Source: Dimargaris cristalligena (Eukaryota). Taken from it: a DNA stretch of 41,448 nucleotides. Every line of letters begins with the position of its first letter. Position 1 is the first letter of the stretch. The stretch is from contig ML002328.1 in NCBI GenBank assembly GCA_003614675.1, positions 1 to 41,448 on the forward strand. The letters are read 5' to 3'. The position numbers were made by a program, and so were the translations under genes. Shown piece after piece: positions 25,784-39,000 of this stretch. The notes below the pieces were generated by a model. That model did no database searches. It saw nothing but the letters and a program-made list of their open reading frames with translations, and had not been told where the DNA came from.

Positions 25784-28700
25784 TTAATCGGATACCTCAA
25801 AGATAGGCTCCACATTGGTCCACTTATCCTTGCCTTCGCTAACCTGCTCGCGCTCCTGCCAGTATTCGTGATTGAATTGCCAGAATGGCTCGTTAGTATC
25901 CGGTTCGATACTACGGCTAAACCACCGTGGCTGCCAGGGTCCTATCGATGGGTCCTCCTCCCGTTCGCGCCTCCGCGCCCGCTGGTGCTCTTCCAGTTGC
26001 GTTTTGAGGTCGCTGGCTTCATCATAATGCCCCTTCTCCATAGCTCGCTGATCGGGCCGGAAGCGGGAGTCGGTGGGGCATAGGTAATCGTCCAAGTGGT
26101 GGCTTACTTCGTTCAGGGTCACCGCAAACCGAGTCAGGTTGAAGGGCAGGGGTGGGTCGGGGAAGGGGGTGCCCCGCCAGAGCAGAATGGGCTTGCTCTT
26201 GGTGCTACTGGCAATACTCTGCACATCCGCGTCTGCCGCCAAGTCCTTTTCCGTCAGCGGCCCCTGCCGACTACCCTTATTAATGCGCCGCGCAATCAGC
26301 CGCTCGTTCCACTTGCCCGCCAGCTCCCACTGCTCGTTGCCCTGGGCATCCTTGGTCTTGCCCTCCAAGACATACAAATTATTGCCCCGCCAGCCGTTCT
26401 GCTTAAACGTCAGGCGGCAGGTCTCTCCCGTGCGGTGGTTCACCACGTCCATGTCACCGTAGTGCTCCATCCAGGGGCTACCCGCAATGAGACCCTGGAC
26501 GGAGGTAATGACCTTCTTCCACGAGTAGTGTTCGATAAAGAAGCCGCCTTCCCGGTCAATGACTTTCGGTTGGGCCGGATCCTGGGGGTCAAGCATATGG
26601 AGGGGGACCTTGAGCTCCACGTGCGATATCCCCAGCGGGCAAATCTCAAACGATTTACCGTAGAACTTGGACTTGACGTTGACCTCGGCATAGAAGTTGT
26701 AGTTGGGTCCGTCGCAGTAGCACGCGCTAATCGGGGGGTGGTGGGACACTTGTTCGGAGACGTACCGGTAGGTCTTATCCGGTCGCACATATTCGAACGT
26801 TTCGCCCAGAAGGGGGTTAAAAGGTTTGGCTATCCGGCCCATGGTCGACGAGTAGTTACTCATGGCCCAAGCCGTCACGAACAGAATCCGCTCGGAGCTG
26901 TGACTGTGGCGCACCGCCATATCAAGCAGTTCGCTGTACTCCATATCCTCAGCCATGCGCTGCAACATCGAGTTGGGTTCGTTGAACACCACAGGCATGG
27001 AGATTTTGGTCAAGTCCTTGCCGATGGAGTTCTTGAGGATCGACCAGAACGAGATGGCGGGGGGCTTGTCGCAACCGGGTCCGAGTTCAGTTCGGAAGTT
27101 ACCCTCCGGAGGATAGCCCCTGTAGGAGCTGGCAATGTACACCTGGGACCCTGGCGTCACATTGGTCACGGAGCCAGCGGGCTCGTCCTCCAAAATATCC
27201 GGAACTAGCTCGCCCACATCCTCGGCATCGTAGAATTGGTCATCATCCTCGTCCTCCTCATCAATAACAAAGGCATCAAGGGGTTGGGCAGCACCCGCGA
27301 AGGGACTATTGGCAGGCTCGCCTTGGGGAGCGGCACGGGGTACTTCGGCGGCAGTCGACGGTGCGGGCTCGGTCACCTGCGGCACGGCGGCGGGGATATC
27401 CACCGCAGGTGACGACACCGTGGGGGTCCGGCCCAGTCGCTGCTGCTTCGTGCGCTGACGTTGGGCACGCATCACCTTCTCCAGTTGGTCCTGCTCCAGA
27501 ATCAGGGATCGGAAGCTTTCGGCCAGTACATTCTGCCGCTCCGTCTCCCTTTGGTATTGGTTCAACCAAAACTGTTCCCGGTCGCGGCCCATTTGCACGG
27601 TTTCGCGTAAGATTTGCCGAATGTCGGCGACCGAGCGTTTGTAGGCCATGGCCAGTTTCTGGGCCGTGGCCGGGGCCGAACTGGACAGAGTGGCAATGGT
27701 GGCTTCGAAGAGCTGTTCCTGGGCTACCATTTGGGCATTGAGGGAGTTGATGTTGAGGTCCAGGGTCTCCTCATGGGGAGGCACGGGGTGATCCTCGTTG
27801 GAGGACGTACTGTCGGCTTGGGAGATCTGGTCAGCCCCGGGGAAGCTGTTAGAGCGACGGCTAGCCTCGTCCTGGCTAGTGGTTGGGCCGTCGGCCTCCG
27901 AAGCAATCGATTTAGTCTCCATGGGGCGGTCGGTGGCGGGGGACGCCCGGAAGCCCGAGGTGGACATATTGGGATGGGTTCCCGTGGCCCCCGCACGACG
28001 GGTGGCTAGGGTGAGGTTATCGGTCGACTTGTGGGGGATGGTCTCAAGGGCCCACTGCTTAGACTGGGTCAGAGCTAGGATCCACCGCTTGGCTTCCACG
28101 GGCAGCTCAGCGCGGAGGCGGTAGCGTACCGATCCCTTGCCCTGTACTTCAAAGTTACCCTGGTCCTTGGCGTCGAAGTTGATGGTGGCAATCTTCAGAT
28201 TAATGGCGCCACGACAAGCATTGCTCGCGTCATCCTTGTCCTTGTAATAGGACAGCACGCCGTTCTCTAGAACGAAGTAGCGGCGTTTGTAGCCTGAGGC
28301 AAAGTTGGTCCATTTGAGAAGGTAGCCCTGCAGACGAGGGGCTTTGCCGGGGGAGGTGGGGCGCAGGGCCACCACCGGGGCATGCTCCAGGACATTGAGG
28401 GTCCGGGCATCGGTGGTTAGCTCGGCGGGGAGCTTGCCGTTTTCGTTACGCACAAATACATCGGCACCCCGGCTGCACCACCACTTGACCAGCTCAAAAT
28501 TTTTGGTCTCGACGGCCTCATGTAGGACGGTATTCCCGTTATTCTCTAGGTTGGGGGTATTAATGTCAACTAGTTTTTGAAAGCGGATGTTCTGGAACAG
28601 CCGGTCGAGCCCCACCAAATTGCCCTTCAGGGTCATGTCATGCATAGACTCTACGCTCTTGCTGACAAAGTCCAGGCGGTTGCCCTTGATCAACTCCGCC

Positions 28701-29732
28701 ACGTCGGGAGACTTGGCGATACGAATGGGGTCCCGGCCGTCGTGGTCGATGATCAGATCATCGATATCGGGCTGGTTTAGGAGGAGTCGAACGACCTCGC
28801 CCCGGCCGGTTTTGGCGGCATGATGGAGGGCGGTCCAGCCGTAGTTGTCCTGGCAGTTGAGGAGGTCGGGGGATTGGAGAGACAGAATAAACTCGATGGT
28901 GGACCGGGACGCGAATTGGATGGCCAGGTGGAGCGGAGTCACTTGGGAAGGGGACGGACCCACCGGAGAAGGGGCGGCACCCTGCTGAGGGCTGTCGGCG
29001 CGGTGGTCGTCGGACCAGTCCCTCAGGGCCTGGGTCAGTTCGGTCTGGTTGCCTAATAGCACGGAGAAGTATTCGTAAAGATGGGGAAAAAGAGTCGGTA
29101 AAGAGGCGTGAGTCGCGGGGATTGGAAGGGTTTTAGAGAGGGCCGGGCGAACCCTGACGAGGGTGCCCATGCATCACCCAATTAGCGTGATCAAACAATA
29201 GAACATCTCGACGGGTAGGCTGATCAAAGGGATCACTCTACTTTGCCCGTTTCAATCTACTATATTCAGCCCATCCATCAACAACTCCTCTATACAAGGA
29301 AAGAACAGCCCACAGGAAGGGAGGGGGGTACAGTTCTTAGGGACACTTACCAGAACGGAGGGCTTCGACTAGCTGGAATTTTTTGAGAGCCAGGTCGGAG
29401 ACTAAAAACGGCGAGAGGGGTAGCATACCATACAAATCAAATCAACAGAGGGTTATAGTCCAATGTGTATATTAGGGACCGATTACAGGTGAATTACAGT
29501 GTCACGGGGTAGAACCATCGATGGTTGCGCACGTGTAGACCCAGGCCCTTCATTCCTAGGGGGGGATGGTACAGGAACACCGCCACAAGCCCGAAGGCGC
29601 GCTCCAAGATGAATAAGGGTTATATGTATATATCAACAGAGACGAGGGGGGCAGGTGCCACTTACCCTGGCTTTTTCGCCGTTCACCGGTATCGCCGGGA
29701 AGAACGAGCGAAGGGGACGTGGCGTCGCTCAT
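25784..29732 (-). CDS. OSH1: Oxysterol-binding protein Osh1/Osh2 (Swh1)-type with ankyrin, PH, FFAT and ORD; exons 29732-29666, 29401-29351, 29052-25784 (1128 aa)
   Basis: Ankyrin repeats (TPLHLA, TALHHAA, TVLHEA); PH domain (GYLLKWTNFASGYKRRYFVL); FFAT-like QFYDAED after an acidic tract; ORD with EQVSHHPP and DSRFRPDQR. Both upstream exons have gtaagt donors and tag acceptors and join in phase 1: MSDATSP...SQV SDLALKKFQLVEALRSG NQTEL. Confidence 0.93.
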
Positions 29733-30796
29733 GGGAGGCCAGGAATTGAGCAGACGAAGAATAGGGTGGAGACGGCTGGGAGTAGTATAGAGTTCCCTTG
29801 ACGACGCGGAAGGAATTAAAAGGAAAGGATAAAGATGCGGACAGAGTCTGCTGAAGAGAAGAGGGAAAACATATAATAGAAGGAGGAAGGAGAAAGAAGA
29901 GAGGCAGATGAGGTAGAGCAGCTCGGTGGTGGATAACAAAGAGACGAGTCGGGACGGGAAACGATGCTGTGGCAGTGAATGCATTCATCGGTGCATACAC
30001 TCACGAGTCTCTAGGCTTAGGGTTGCGCCCCTGTCGCCTCCCCAACCTGTTAATCATGCCACCCCACTCCAGCGCCAATCTGGGAACCCTGTAATAACGC
30101 CCGAGAAAACAATAACCGCCGGCAAAGGAAAGGAGAGGAGGAGGACCTTGCAGGTCGGTTTCGCGTTTTGGTTGGTCTTGTTGGGCCCACCACATGAGCG
30201 ACCGTGGTCATTAGCCGCGGGTATTGAATTCCAACCGCCATCACTATACCTACAACTAATACTATAACCATAGCAAAGTCGGGGAGTTCCATCGTATCCG
30301 CCGTTGGAAAGGGAACCGGCCGACTGAAAATAACCGTGTTTCCCAGTCTGTATTGGAAAGCCCCACTGGCAAATGCCCGATTACTAGGAGTGGGTTTACG
30401 CTTGGCAATTAATTTTGGCATTCATTTTTGGGCTGGAGCCACTGCGCAGCAAAGGGCGCAACCGATCCCTACTCGAAATAGCTAACCCCTACTCTGCCTC
30501 ACGAAGTACCCCCTAATCTCTTGGGCCATAGTCATGCGACCTTTTTTAATATCCATCCAAACTCATGGGTGTACGAGGAATGTGGGGAGGGGGTATTGTC
30601 CGACGATGGTCCCCCAAATTACAATTACACCACCACGGTAGGGCCGGATAGAAAAAACCAGCTTATGGGGGTGTTCCAACTATACTTTATTATTTAGAGT
30701 AAGTAAACTAGTAAGTGGATGGGCTGGTCCCGCTAAACGGATACGGAAATAGAGGAATAATGAGGGACAGTAGGAAGTGTCCGTGAGAGCCTAAGG

Positions 30797-31258
30797 TTAA
30801 AGCTTGGAGATGCGCGTCTTCGAGGGCCACAGGGGCTTGTCCGTCTTTTTGGCCCGGAGCCGCCGCTGCTTAGCCTACAGGGTTTACAACAATAAGGCGT
30901 AGAAGGGATGGTTAGGGTTATTAGGCTGGGAAATGGTGAGTTGGCGGGGATAAATGATATTCCGGGTCAAAAGATGACCTGCACCGAAACAGACTAGGTG
31001 GCCCTCTGTGATTAGTGGGTTATAAGAGGTTAACGCAATATAATGGGAATAATTGTCCGGTTATGCCTTGTTATCAATATAACCCATCTGTTTTACCTTG
31101 AGCATGGTTTTGTTGCAGATAGTATTACGGGCAAACTTGTGGTTCTTGGAGAGGGCTCGCAGTGGGGTGGTTGTCAACTCCAGGGCCGAGCGAAAAACCG
31201 ACTGGGGGGCAAGTTGGCCAAGGTTCAAGGCCGTTTGGAAACGCAGAATGAAGGACAT
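30797..31258 (-). CDS. Small basic protein (79 aa) with mitochondrial-presequence-like N-terminus; exons 31258-31097 and 30874-30797
   Basis: Donor AAG|gtaaaa, branch CTAAC (plus-strand gttag 30911-30915), acceptor ctgtag|, phase 0. Product: MSFILRFQTALNLGQLAPQSVFRSALELTTTPLRALSKNHKFARNTICNKTMLK-AKQRRLRAKKTDKPLWPSKTRISKL*. Exon 2 has the C/G-ending codon bias of neighbouring genes. Confidence 0.7.
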
Positions 31259-31823
31259 GGTCGAGAGAATAGCAATCTATATATTGCGATTGTGGGAGAT
31301 CCAAGCTGGGGTGGAATAGGAGGTGCACTCAGGCAACAGGGGAGGAAAAGGGCAAGTAACTATTATTCAGGGAAAGTACAGCAAGGCTGGATTATGCTAT
31401 ATATAAAATGGGTATCTGATTTTTAAACCAAAAGGAAACTCGTTAGAAACATGGCCTATTCTTGAAGTTAGATGGTATTTGCTGGCATGTGGGGGATTCG
31501 GGGCCAACGAGGGAGGGGCACGCTCTCATAACCCGTCTGCATTAAGCCTGTTACAAAACTCTTACATAGTGGGTGAGGGGACTTACCGTCCCATGGGCAG
31601 ATCCGCTAACTAACCTACTTACTTACTTACTCCCCAGATCAGTTTTACAAGGGCGGTCTCTCTCCAGGTGAATCGACTCCACACCATATATACCCACTTC
31701 CCCATTTATTTTAACCGATTTGCCCCTACTAGGCTCTTTGCTTTTGGGTGGATCTCTCAACCGTTGTGCCCACTAACCCCCTACTTTATTGGATTCCCCA
31801 ATCTTTCGATTCCCTCTTCGCCC

Positions 31824-32594
31824 ATGTCCATGCGCCTGTGGAAGTCCCTCGCCCTGCGACCGGTTCGGCTGGGCGCCGGCCCAGTAGGCCAGCGTTTTTC
31901 AACCTCCAATGGCCCCCAGTGGTCCCGTAAGAAGAGGTACCAGACCGCCATCCGTGAGCTTGAAGAGCCCGCCTGGCTAGACGAGATGCCGGGCAAACAT
32001 CTGGGCGAGCTGACCCGCCCCGGTCAGATGCTGTGGCTCAATGTACGCGAGGTGGAAAAGTACATTCACAAGCTAAAGACGGAGGTCCCCCAGCTAGCCG
32101 TCCACGCCCGGCCGGCCCCCGCGAGCGTGACCGGGAGCGAGGCCTACGTGGCCCCCCGCGTACGCGAGCGCACGGCCCTGGCTGTACCTACCGTGGACCC
32201 CGCCAACCCCGTCCTTCGTTTCCGGAGTGCCAATTACGCCCTAGAGACCAACCACAGCCGTCAGCAAGGCATGATCCTAACCGTCTCGCTCCCCCAGTTG
32301 CAACTTACCGACCCGCAGCACCATAAACTCAAGCTGCTGGTCGGGGTCGAGGCCTACCGCTTTGAATCGGAGGAGCTGGTGCTCGGCTGCAACGACTTTA
32401 GCACCCGGGCCGAGAACAAATCCCATCTGGTCCAGATTCTCCGCAACCTCCTTCAAGAAGTCCGGGAAAACTCGGACATGTTTACTGACGTACCTGCCCC
32501 GTCGGTGGGCTACCTCCGCCGCAAGAAGTTCGCCATGAAGAGCCTACGCTTCCCCGCTGAGTGGGTTCGGCCCAAGGCCACCCCGGGGGTTTAA
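31824..32594 (+). CDS. RSM24: Mitochondrial ribosomal small-subunit protein mS35 (Rsm24 / MRP-S28 domain), 256 aa
   Basis: Presequence-like MSMRLWKSLALRPVRL...QRFST; EVEKYIHKLKTEVPQL, VLRFRS..Y, QHHKLKLLVG..Y, CNDFSTRAENKSHL..IL..LL.E, D.F.DVP and FPAEW match the mS35 pattern. Confidence 0.85.
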   Translation: MSMRLWKSLALRPVRLGAGPVGQRFSTSNGPQWSRKKRYQTAIRELEEPAWLDEMPGKHLGELTRPGQMLWLNVREVEKYIHKLKTEVPQLAVHARPAPASVTGSEAYVAPRVRERTALAVPTVDPANPVLRFRSANYALETNHSRQQGMILTVSLPQLQLTDPQHHKLKLLVGVEAYRFESEELVLGCNDFSTRAENKSHLVQILRNLLQEVRENSDMFTDVPAPSVGYLRRKKFAMKSLRFPAEWVRPKATPGV

Positions 32595-33479: not shown

Positions 33480-34698
33480 ATGTCGTTTGTTTCTCCGATC
33501 AGTCGTCCGTTGATCCGCGGTGCCGGACCTGTCACCACAATTGGTAAGTACTCTGGGTTCAGTGGTCTTCTTTCGCCCTCCCGCTACAAACACCGTCCCG
33601 TCCCCGGCCCTTTCTCTATAGCACCCTATACGCATAATTCTGGCTTACCTTGGCTGACTTGCAGACGCCCCAAGCACCTGCTTCAGGACCCATTGCATTG
33701 CTAACCGAATCTTACTTGATCTCACCCGATACCATCCGATACTTTCCATATTCGATAGGGCGTTGGGTCCACACCACCAGCCCGGTCACTGCCAAAGTAT
33801 CCCTCCGCAAACAAGAGATTCGGGCGTCGATTAAGAAGGCCCAGGAAGAGGCCGTCCTGCGCCGGGAGGAACGCCGCAAGCTAGTGGATACCCCGTTTTT
33901 AAATTCCCTGATTGACCCGCAAAAACTTTTCCAAAGTACTCTGGAGTCGTCCACCCGGGCCCCAATCGAAGAAGCGTCCGAAGCAGTACCCCGGGCCATC
34001 CTAGGGCTAACGACGGACGATCAAAAATTTCTGTTAGAATCGGTTCCCCAGGTTAAGTTGACCCACAGCAAATTGGCTAATGAGGATGATACGTGGGCGG
34101 CTCGGACGGCGGCGGAAAATGTTGCCAAAGTGCTGTCTTTGGAAAATGCGGGAAGCCCCGAGATCACCAAGTGGAATAAGCAGTTGGCCGTTCGCACTTT
34201 TGGTCGGAAGGAACACGACACGGGTAGCTCGGAAGTGCAAGGTAGGTCCAAGGATAGTTAGTTTAAAGGAGAGGAGCGTGTTTTGATGCTTAACCATATA
34301 TATATATGTATCAACGGTTAACTGCCCTTTTTAGGCCAGTTTGGTTTTATTTCGAAATCATGACTTATTGTCACCTATACTGAACTCGGCACACTCTCTG
34401 CAATCCTATTTTTTATATATTATTATTATTGACACGACGCATGTATTTACACCTCTCGCTAGCGGCTATCTGGACCATTCGCATCAATAATTTGAAACTT
34501 CACCTGCTGAAGAACCCGAAAGACAAGTACAATTGCCGCCGGTACATTATGCTTCAGCACAAGCGGGCTAAGATACTGCGCTACCTCAAGCGCTGCAGTC
34601 TGGAGCGCTACGCCAAATGTATTAAGCAGCTCGGCCTCCGACCTGAAATGGTGGAAGAGCAGATTAAGCCTATTTCCCGGGTGACAGAAGAAGAGTAG
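33480..34698 (+). CDS. MRPS28: Mitochondrial ribosomal protein uS15m (yeast Mrps28); exons 33480-33543, 33759-34241, 34463-34698 (260 aa)
   Basis: Both introns are phase 1 (gtaagt..gatag; gtaggt..ctag). The spliced product has the S15 signature DTGSSEVQAAIWTIRINNLKLHL.KNPKD...R......HKRAKILRYLKR and a presequence-like N-terminus. Confidence 0.92.
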
Positions 34699-35327: not shown

Positions 35328-35612
35328 ATGGCCGCTCTGCTCGAAAGTAACTGTCCGGAGTTGACGCTCCTGTCGCGGGGCAAAGTTCGGGATCTGTATG
35401 CAGTCGACGAGAAGTCGTTATTGTTCGTCGCCACCGACCGCATTAGCGCCTTTGACGTGGTTATGAAAACGGTACGTTTGCCGCCGGGTGCTTTACACTG
35501 ACAGTGCTCTGACGGGTTCGTCCCTATTTGACCTTTACTTATTATTGAATATATAATATATATATATATGGGTCTTTGAGGGTTTAGTATCTAGTGTCTG
35601 GTATTTAATTGA

Positions 35613-35646
<34 letters not shown>

Positions 35647-36454
35647 TTATGGCTTTGTGGTTGACTACTTCCCTCTCTGTTGCACGGGGTTCCAGGGTAT
35701 TCCCGGCAAAGGCAAGGTTCTGACTCAACTGAGCGTGTTTTGGTTTAACTACCTTGGGGATGTCCTGCCCAACCACCTAATTACGGCGGACATGGACCAG
35801 ATGCCGGCCCAGGTGCAGAAATATCGGGATCAATTGGAAGGTCGCTCGCTTTTGGTCAAGCGCGCCGAAATCTACCCTGTCGAGGCGATTGTGCGGGGCT
35901 ATTTGTCCGGATCGGGCTGGCAGGAGTACCAAGCGCAGCAATCGGTGTGTGATATTCCGTTGCCGCCCAACCTGGTGGAGAGTGCGCAGCTTCCGAAACC
36001 CCTGTTTACGCCCAGCACCAAGGCCGAACTGGGGGAGCATGATATGAATATCCACCCTAGTAAGGTGGTGGAGATGATTGGGGAGCCTGCCGCACGCGCC
36101 ATGGAGTCGGCGGCGCTGGCGTTGTACGCCAAGGCCCACCAGTATGCCCTGGAGCGGGGCATTGTTATTGCGGACACTAAGTTTGAATTCGGCCAGTTAG
36201 TGGGAGGGGACTCTTCGTTGCTGCTGGCGGACGAGGTGTTAACTCCCGACTCGTCACGGTTCTGGGATGCCCAAAGCTACCAACCGGGCAGCAGCCCCAA
36301 GAGCTTTGATAAGCAATACCTGCGCGACTATTTGAACAGCGTGGGGTTCGACCGTCAGACCAGCATTGATCTGCCCGAGACGGTCGTGCAGAACACCATT
36401 GCCAAGTATATCGAAGCCTTTCGTATCCTGACGGGTAAGTCGCCCCAGCTATAG
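35328..36454 (+). CDS. ADE1: SAICAR synthetase; exons 35328-35471 and 35696-36454 (300 aa)
   Basis: Exon 1 RGKVRDLY...[16 protein letters not shown]; intron gtacgt..ccag, phase 0; exon 2 [76 protein letters not shown]. Confidence 0.97.
35612..35646. repeat. (ATT)n microsatellite in the ADE1 intron
   Basis: Run of attattatt...; source of the spurious poly-Leu start of ORF 35609. Confidence 0.9.

Positions 36455-37386: not shown

Positions 37387-39000
<1,614 letters not shown>

Follow-up and report, generated by a model that had tools for sequence, protein, structure and literature searches.

The 41,448-nucleotide (nt) stretch of Dimargaris cristalligena DNA analysed here (contig ML002328.1 of assembly GCA_003614675.1, positions 1 to 41,448 of the forward strand, hereafter the window) carries on its minus strand a small two-exon gene for a basic protein of 79 amino acids (aa), next to the gene of the mitoribosomal small-subunit protein mS35 (Table 1). 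The source organism is placed in the Kickxellomycota, order Dimargaritales. An earlier note, made from the letters of the window without database searches, had described two exons that join in frame over a canonical intron with a branch site, and had pointed out that the plain list of open reading frames (ORFs) holds only exon 1 run into the intron. Both descriptions are correct: joined by coordinate, the exons give 240 nt that translate in frame into 79 aa and a stop; the intron has GT..AG borders and a branch-like CTAAC whose A lies 37 nt ahead of the 3' splice site, with a CTAAT at 46 nt; its three frames contain 3, 5 and 6 stops; and without splicing the frame runs 11 further codons into the intron before a stop, which is the 65-aa ORF 31061..31258 of the list. 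With about 220 nt, an intron of uS15m nearby (34242..34461) is of much the same size, so a length of 222 nt is normal for this locus.

Table 1. Position of the small gene, its parts and its neighbours in the window.
Feature	Position	Strand	Remarks
Exon 1 of the small gene	31097..31258	minus	ATG at 31258 (A at -3); 162 nt, 54 codons, MSFIL...TMLK
Intron of the small gene	30875..31096	minus	phase 0, 222 nt; donor GTAAAA at 31096, acceptor CTGTAG ending 30875
Exon 2 of the small gene	30797..30874	minus	25 codons (AKQRRLRAKKTDKPLWPSKTRISKL) plus TAA at 30797; SKL end
AATAAA hexamer	30686..30691	minus	105 nt past the stop; possible polyadenylation signal, consensus match only
Divergent intergenic region	31259..31823		565 bp between the ATG of the small gene and the mS35 ATG
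mS35	31824..32594	plus	256-aa ORF; PF10213 MRP-S28, E 2.4e-19; head-to-head with the small gene
uS15m	33700-34698	plus	at least three exons; last exon PF00312, E 5.1e-16; about 2.5 kb beyond mS35
Ankyrin/PH oxysterol-binding protein	25784..29170	minus	Oxysterol_BP, E 1.6e-141
SAICAR synthetase	35609-36454	plus	E 5.2e-57
Forkhead protein with FHA domain	37387-39000	plus	E 2.3e-36 and 3.3e-9

In one respect the earlier note did not hold, as the gene it called hidden already has a public model: the spliced 79 aa are letter for letter the NCBI entry 'hypothetical protein H4R33_003033 [Dimargaris cristalligena]', and exon 1 used as sole query returned a single match, a 79-aa protein at 100% identity. 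Orthologues are annotated in three relatives, namely Tieghemiomyces parasiticus (66 aa, expectation value (E) 1.7e-30 in the search with profile A1), Dispira parvispora (83 aa, E 1.1e-11) and Dispira simplex (73 aa, E 1.8e-11, both by profile search); each is named 'hypothetical' and is without a Pfam domain. Searching 1.84 billion representatives exhaustively with phmmer recovered, apart from the protein itself, the Tieghemiomyces protein at E 5.2e-5 and the repeat protein P0004 treated below. The alignment of the four Dimargaritales species has 27 invariant columns, 16 of them within the 25 positions of exon 2. For exon 2, the other three species agree with the Dimargaris protein at 16-18 of 25 residues; for exon 1, they do so at 12-17 of 54. 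The block C.KTMLKAKQRRLR..KTDKP crosses the exon junction, where 12 consecutive residues are identical in all four species, and KTMLK at the end of exon 1 is followed without interruption by AKQRRLR of exon 2 in the proteins of the three other species. Because the invariant MLKAKQRRLR spans the junction and conservation is highest in exon 2, both the splice junction and the coding status are supported; a drifting leader, a frozen core and proper frame ends together make the pattern expected of a translated gene, and we regard the exact junction as confirmed.

Beyond the order, a profile search among 4,423 longer-protein candidates gave a sole hit (E 1.3e-4): P0008, a hypothetical protein of 174 aa from Paraphysoderma sedebokerense, a blastoclad. 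The core of this protein reads KTERYKAMLKAKQRRLRRGKTDGPP, with 18 of 27 residues identical to the Dispira protein P0006. The same model carries about 47 extra residues past a conserved KTDGPP and a 99-aa Ser-rich N-terminal part. To judge from these residues, the family may be larger outside Dimargaritales, or the P0008 gene model may have missed an intron or a stop. Another protein, the 687-aa tandem-repeat protein P0004, matched at E 2.8e-8 over 8 stretches with 21% identity and was rejected as a repeat-driven false positive. In metagenomes, 416 pattern stretches matched in a scan with profile A3 and none was confirmed as a copy, while a degenerate DNA pattern for AKQRRLR..KTD.P gave no matches. 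Two-exon genes of about 70 codons often go unannotated, so that the lack of the family in the protein databases of other fungi counts for little. So far, the family is known from Dimargaritales, and its core can also be recognised in a single blastoclad.

Since three further Dimargaritales have homologues and the core is matched in Paraphysoderma, the claim of the earlier note that the spliced gene is real and conserved stands, and we hold it highly probable that D. cristalligena has here a genuine two-exon protein-coding gene. One could still argue for a non-functional element, that is, an ab initio artefact repeated in related genomes or conserved DNA that serves something else, given that the protein is tiny and that its language-model recognition value is 1544, against the 2300 reached by 91 in 100 known-family proteins. 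Conservation nevertheless follows the protein and not its DNA surroundings, a near-invariant module of 36 aa standing beside a freely varying leader and finding its match in another phylum; together with canonical splice signals and stops in all intron frames, this makes such an explanation very unlikely in our opinion.

The protein falls into three parts: leader, conserved motif and core. Residues 1-36 form a variable, acid-poor leader, which runs into the conserved R-x-x-S motif R34-A-L-S37, and the end of exon 1 (residues 44-54, ..NTICNKTMLK) begins the conserved core that exon 2 completes. The earlier note had described an acid-poor N-terminus of about 35 aa, a K/R-rich remainder and, overall, a layout of leader plus basic core; the composition bears this out, with 3 K/R, 1 D/E and 7 S/T in the first 35 aa and 13 K/R in the last 36, and the homologues share the layout. 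Ahead of the core, the leader of the Dimargaritales proteins is 30-47 aa long and that of the Paraphysoderma model 99 aa; all five members have 4-10 K/R and 0-1 D/E in it, together with many S/T/L/R and hydrophobic residues, and its length and sequence differ between species. Its maximum hydrophobic moment lies at 0.56-0.72 over 11 residues in the five members, to be read with the fact that the oxysterol-binding neighbour is similar in N-terminal counts. Immediately ahead of the core, P-[LI]-R-x-x-S is present in four of four Dimargaritales, R34 and S37 being invariant, and R-x-x-[SA] was not found in Paraphysoderma P0008. The position of R-x-x-S fits an R-3 type processing site, and a cut at this place would leave a putative mature peptide of 37-43 aa with an isoelectric point (pI) of 11.7-12.0.

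The core holds 13-15 K/R in 36 residues (K+R 36-42%), and its hydrophobic residues repeat at helix spacing among the basic ones. AlphaFold2, given the four-sequence alignment, predicted one long helix over residues 33-65, the best block being 51-60 at a predicted local distance difference test score (pLDDT) of 85. The near-invariant module of about 36 aa would consist of a strongly basic and amphipathic helix (C.KTMLKAKQRRLR), followed by KTDKP(P) and by a short basic tail that ends in SKL.

The surroundings of the gene also agree with what the earlier note had stated, both its head-to-head arrangement with mS35 and its position beside two small-subunit genes, which the PF10213 match of mS35 and the PF00312 match of uS15m bear out. 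The region between the two divergent ATGs presumably acts as a shared or back-to-back promoter. On the plus strand at 31573-31637, upstream of the mS35 ATG, we observed a 65-nt segment GTGAGG ... GCTAACTAAC ... CCCCAG that resembles a short 5'-leader intron of mS35; if this intron is real, the start sites of the two divergent transcripts are less than 565 bp apart. In uS15m, an acceptor (GCTAAC...CGATAG) ends at 33758, and the 160-aa middle exon is without a Pfam match. That two genes of the mitoribosomal small subunit lie in a span of 3.5 kb is suggestive. Further away, positions 38001-39000, inside the Pro/Ser-rich part of the forkhead gene, have a GC content of 0.62 and a GC skew of -0.42.

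Our preferred reading assembles these elements into one chain of events. The leader would act as a mitochondrial presequence, the matrix processing peptidase would cut after the R-x-x motif, and cleavage would free a peptide of 37-43 aa with a pI of about 12; the freed peptide would be an RNA binder and most likely a small part of the mitoribosome, either lineage-specific or divergent beyond recognition, and mS35, transcribed divergently, would be expressed together with the small gene. To this whole chain, to our mind the most economical account, in which a strongly basic helical peptide would be imported, processed and bound to RNA inside the matrix, probably at the mitoribosome, we assign a probability of roughly 0.35. 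Within it, the presequence is plausible from the pattern that recurs across the homologues, and a mitoribosomal role, read from the sequences, is likewise plausible.

A number of results weigh against this mitochondrial proposal, starting with the gene models themselves. Draft fungal annotations are often ab initio, and the four concordant models may all be of this kind, so that they do not count as independent proof of a transcript. The first 35 aa of the cytosolic oxysterol-binding neighbour count 3 K/R, 1 D/E and 6 S/T, so that simple counts do not discriminate; the R-x-x-S search pattern is loose; and the AlphaFold2 model is of low confidence, with a mean pLDDT of 60.7 and a predicted template modelling score (pTM) of 0.27. 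Gene neighbourhood, for its part, is weak evidence of common function in fungi. The basic stretch KAKQRRLRAKK is similar to classical nuclear localisation signals, and the protein may accordingly be pictured as a nuclear, nucleolar or cytosolic basic peptide, for instance ribosome- or RNA-associated, in which this cluster serves as a nuclear localisation signal or an RNA-binding helix and the N-terminus is not targeting. Besides this resemblance, the N-terminal counts that do not set the protein apart from its cytosolic neighbour would suit such a peptide, as would the fact that the weak, chance-level ribosomal matches in the PDB described below are all to cytosolic proteins. Those matches are not significant, however, no nuclear family was matched in Pfam, and the presequence-like, variable and acid-poor leader of 30-99 aa in five of five homologues would stay unexplained; we consider this alternative improbable.

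The mitochondrial proposal also has to face the outcome of general family and structure searches. None of the five family members was matched by Pfam or by NCBIfam; the sole Pfam hit, SopE_GEF on Paraphysoderma P0008, reached E 0.05 and 14.4 bits against a cut-off of 25 and was rejected. By sequence, all PDB chains, solved mitoribosomes included (177,635 sequences), gave only matches at E 0.45-4.4. The Dimargaris protein met only a designed repeat protein (E 1.5), P0008 met growth hormone, carbonic anhydrase V and eL19 (E 0.45-4.4, the archaeal eL19 entries at 2.3 and 4.4), profile A3 met a microsporidian uL18 through its N-terminal RRRREGKTDY (E 2.4), and all of these were taken as chance; profiles A1 and A2 had no hits in the PDB. 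Foldseek returned no matches, and the ESM Atlas gave no usable feature match for the Dimargaris protein or for the core of Dispira P0006, the structural rows for P0006 being short helices of unrelated families with a model pLDDT of 0.36. By eye, the core can be likened to mS38, bL36, bL34, bS21, bL35, bL20, THX, eL19, eL39 and uL18, which is too many, and none of these likenesses counts; the candidates that were given targeted profiles all failed, and THX, bL20, uL18 and eL19 were without a targeted test. From these sequence comparisons, no detectable known family fits.

Targeted tests against small ribosomal families led to the same outcome. Profiles for bL34, bL36, bS21, bL35, bL32 and bL33 were built from 24-30 proteobacterial members each, and the five cores were scored with filters off against 400 shuffles each; the cores obtained -2.0 to 2.8 bits, and 29-372 of the 400 shuffles were equal or better. 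Alignment of the core alignment with each of the six proteobacterial families by hhalign gave probabilities of 0.07-1.18%. The Pfam models tested were PF00468, PF00444, PF01165, PF01632, PF01783 and PF00471. The earlier note had been unable to match the core to mS38, bL34 or bL36, and Pfam, NCBIfam and our own bacterial-member profiles agree with it there; its suggestion of a divergent mS38-like protein, in the sense of family membership, finds no such agreement. This suggestion would make the protein a highly divergent member of the mS38/Cox24/bS22/eL41 family (PF08213) and, on the model of mS38 in yeast and human, would place its C-terminal basic helix along helix 44 of the small-subunit ribosomal RNA (rRNA), where the two subunits meet. 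It has some appeal: the layout resembles that of yeast mS38, whose R/K-rich C-terminal helix measures about 31 aa (PMC6582356); PF08213 proteins vary widely in size, from about 30 to more than 500 aa (PMC10081302); the PF08213 model has 33 positions, near the 36 aa of the core; both adjoining genes, mS35 and uS15m, belong to the small subunit; and the bS22 profile aligns 'mrKkKHKKl' to 'MLKAKQRRL', in a register equal to the one found by eye. Yet PF08213 (COX24_C, cut-off 23 bits) matched none of the five members at E <= 10, a search in which HMMER filters may hide E values above about 0.1, although the model is sensitive enough to match, in six-frame translations, 30 of the 61 Actinomycetota genomes sampled, through small ORFs of 28-33 aa, and Corynebacterium glutamicum among the controls; these matches fit the published relationship of bS22 and mS38. 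A bS22-type profile made from 25 actinobacterial PF08213 proteins, actinobacterial members only, and run with hmmsearch --max (left out were the rows of three unpublished genomes, a match interrupted by an internal stop and another below threshold) scored the cores at -5.2 to 1.2 bits, with 48-353 of 400 shuffles as high or higher, and without the null2 composition correction 53-206 of 400 shuffles were equal or better, so that the scores lie inside the shuffle range either way. The cores are moreover less basic than the bS22 set (K+R 36-42% versus 56%), their predicted helix is broken by D-K-P-P, and a KHK-type motif is absent. Membership in the mS38 family is, in consequence, quite unlikely.

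The other end of the protein raises a question of destination, which the earlier note did not mention. SKL is the classic peroxisomal targeting signal type 1 (PTS1) tripeptide, of consensus [SAC][KRH][LM]. The end R-[IV]-S-K-L (30797-30808, minus strand) is present in four of four Dimargaritales, S77, K78 and L79 being invariant, so that four of the five family members end in the consensus, each of the four with SKL; the Paraphysoderma homologue ends in RVWN, which is not a PTS1. Drawn from the composition of the core, an end of the form [SAC][KRH][LM] has a chance of about 0.5-0.7%, and SKL itself of about 0.06-0.14%. As a sequence pattern, the invariant SKL argues for another or a second destination and adds to the points that speak against a purely mitochondrial protein. 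The product might then be a peroxisomal protein, or one shared between mitochondria and peroxisomes, with SKL read by Pex5 as a PTS1, alone or in competition with the leader. Along with the low odds of SKL by chance, basic residues ahead of the tripeptide favour this possibility, and fungal dual-signal proteins are documented (PMC10906886, PMC7217942). Against it, the RVWN end of Paraphysoderma means that the common core function needs no PTS1, the four SKL ends come from one order and may be a single inherited state kept for another reason, such as an RNA contact, and a peptide of 4-5 kDa and pI 12 has no obvious peroxisomal role; on balance we find such a destination unlikely.

Seen more broadly, annotation often passes over very small genes with introns or leaves them as 'hypothetical', and the gene described here, which stands back-to-back with mS35 in a species from a mycoparasitic order, has a recognisable counterpart in a blastoclad. 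The proteins mS38, bS22, bL36 and bL34 are small, basic and proven real parts of the ribosome, with effects on decoding and antibiotic sensitivity. Should our mitochondrial reading be true, the conserved peptide would enlarge the still poorly known list of mitoribosomal components in early-diverging fungi; and should the presequence-like leader and the invariant SKL both prove functional, they would offer a compact natural test case for sorting by two competing signals. A more specific formulation, on which we would place only guarded hopes, is that the protein may be an unrecognised component of mitochondrial translation in early-diverging fungi, a peptide of about 4-5 kDa and pI 12 made from a precursor with a mitochondrial leader and, in Dimargaritales, a conserved SKL. 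It would then count as a mitoribosomal protein new to science and specific to its lineage, or else as the smallest protein known to carry competing mitochondrial and peroxisomal signals. If neither reading holds, what is left is a validated orphan family whose signature C.KTMLKAKQRRLR..KTDKP can be used to find unannotated copies.

Comparison with known systems helps to place the family. A local likeness exists to eukaryotic uL18 (RPL5), whose N-terminal 5S-rRNA-binding tail RRRREGKTDY recalls RR.R..KTD here, a motif-level resemblance only at E 2.4, and archaeal eL19 aligns without gaps to residues 84-136 of P0008, at E values of 2.3 and 4.4 that are chance level; both uL18 and eL19 are large cytosolic proteins of which no other part aligns. 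A likeness in general plan is offered by bL34m, bL36m, bL35m, bL32m, bL33m and bS21m, which consist of a presequence and a very short, very basic mature protein, as proposed for the Dimargaris family, and the putative mature Dimargaritales peptides of 37-43 aa compare with 36-48 aa in the extracted bacterial bL34 and bL36 proteins. Zn-ribbon cysteines mark bL36 and an HGF motif marks bL34, whereas the Dimargaris family has neither.

Fungal proteins that combine a mitochondrial signal with a PTS1 can, according to PMC10906886 and PMC7217942, shuttle between the two organelles or tether them. Ptc5, Cat2, Lys12 and others possess an N-terminal mitochondrial signal and a C-terminal PTS1, to which the presequence-like leader and the PTS1-type tripeptide of the Dimargaris family would correspond; they are, however, normal-sized enzymes, while the Dimargaris product would measure about 4-5 kDa after the presumed processing and has no enzymatic domain.

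A further comparison is with mS38. The yeast protein, according to PMC6582356, is 111 aa long and has a short targeting sequence, a divergent N-terminal part and a conserved 31-aa R/K-rich C-terminal helix that lies along rRNA helix 44, and PMC10081302 adds that PF08213 proteins start at about 30 aa in bacteria, where bS22 carries the domain. Like the Dimargaris family, mS38/Cox24/AURKAIP1/bS22 proteins join a short organelle leader, putative in the family here, and a divergent N-terminal part to a conserved C-terminal R/K-rich module of about 30-36 aa that is helical, here by prediction, and mS38 is a protein of the small subunit, to which both adjoining genes of the Dimargaris gene also belong. 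A K+R content below that of the bS22 set, the interruption of the predicted helix by DKPP and the SKL end set the Dimargaris protein apart. Membership in the mS38 family is accordingly not supported; by analogy, the family may work in a similar way.

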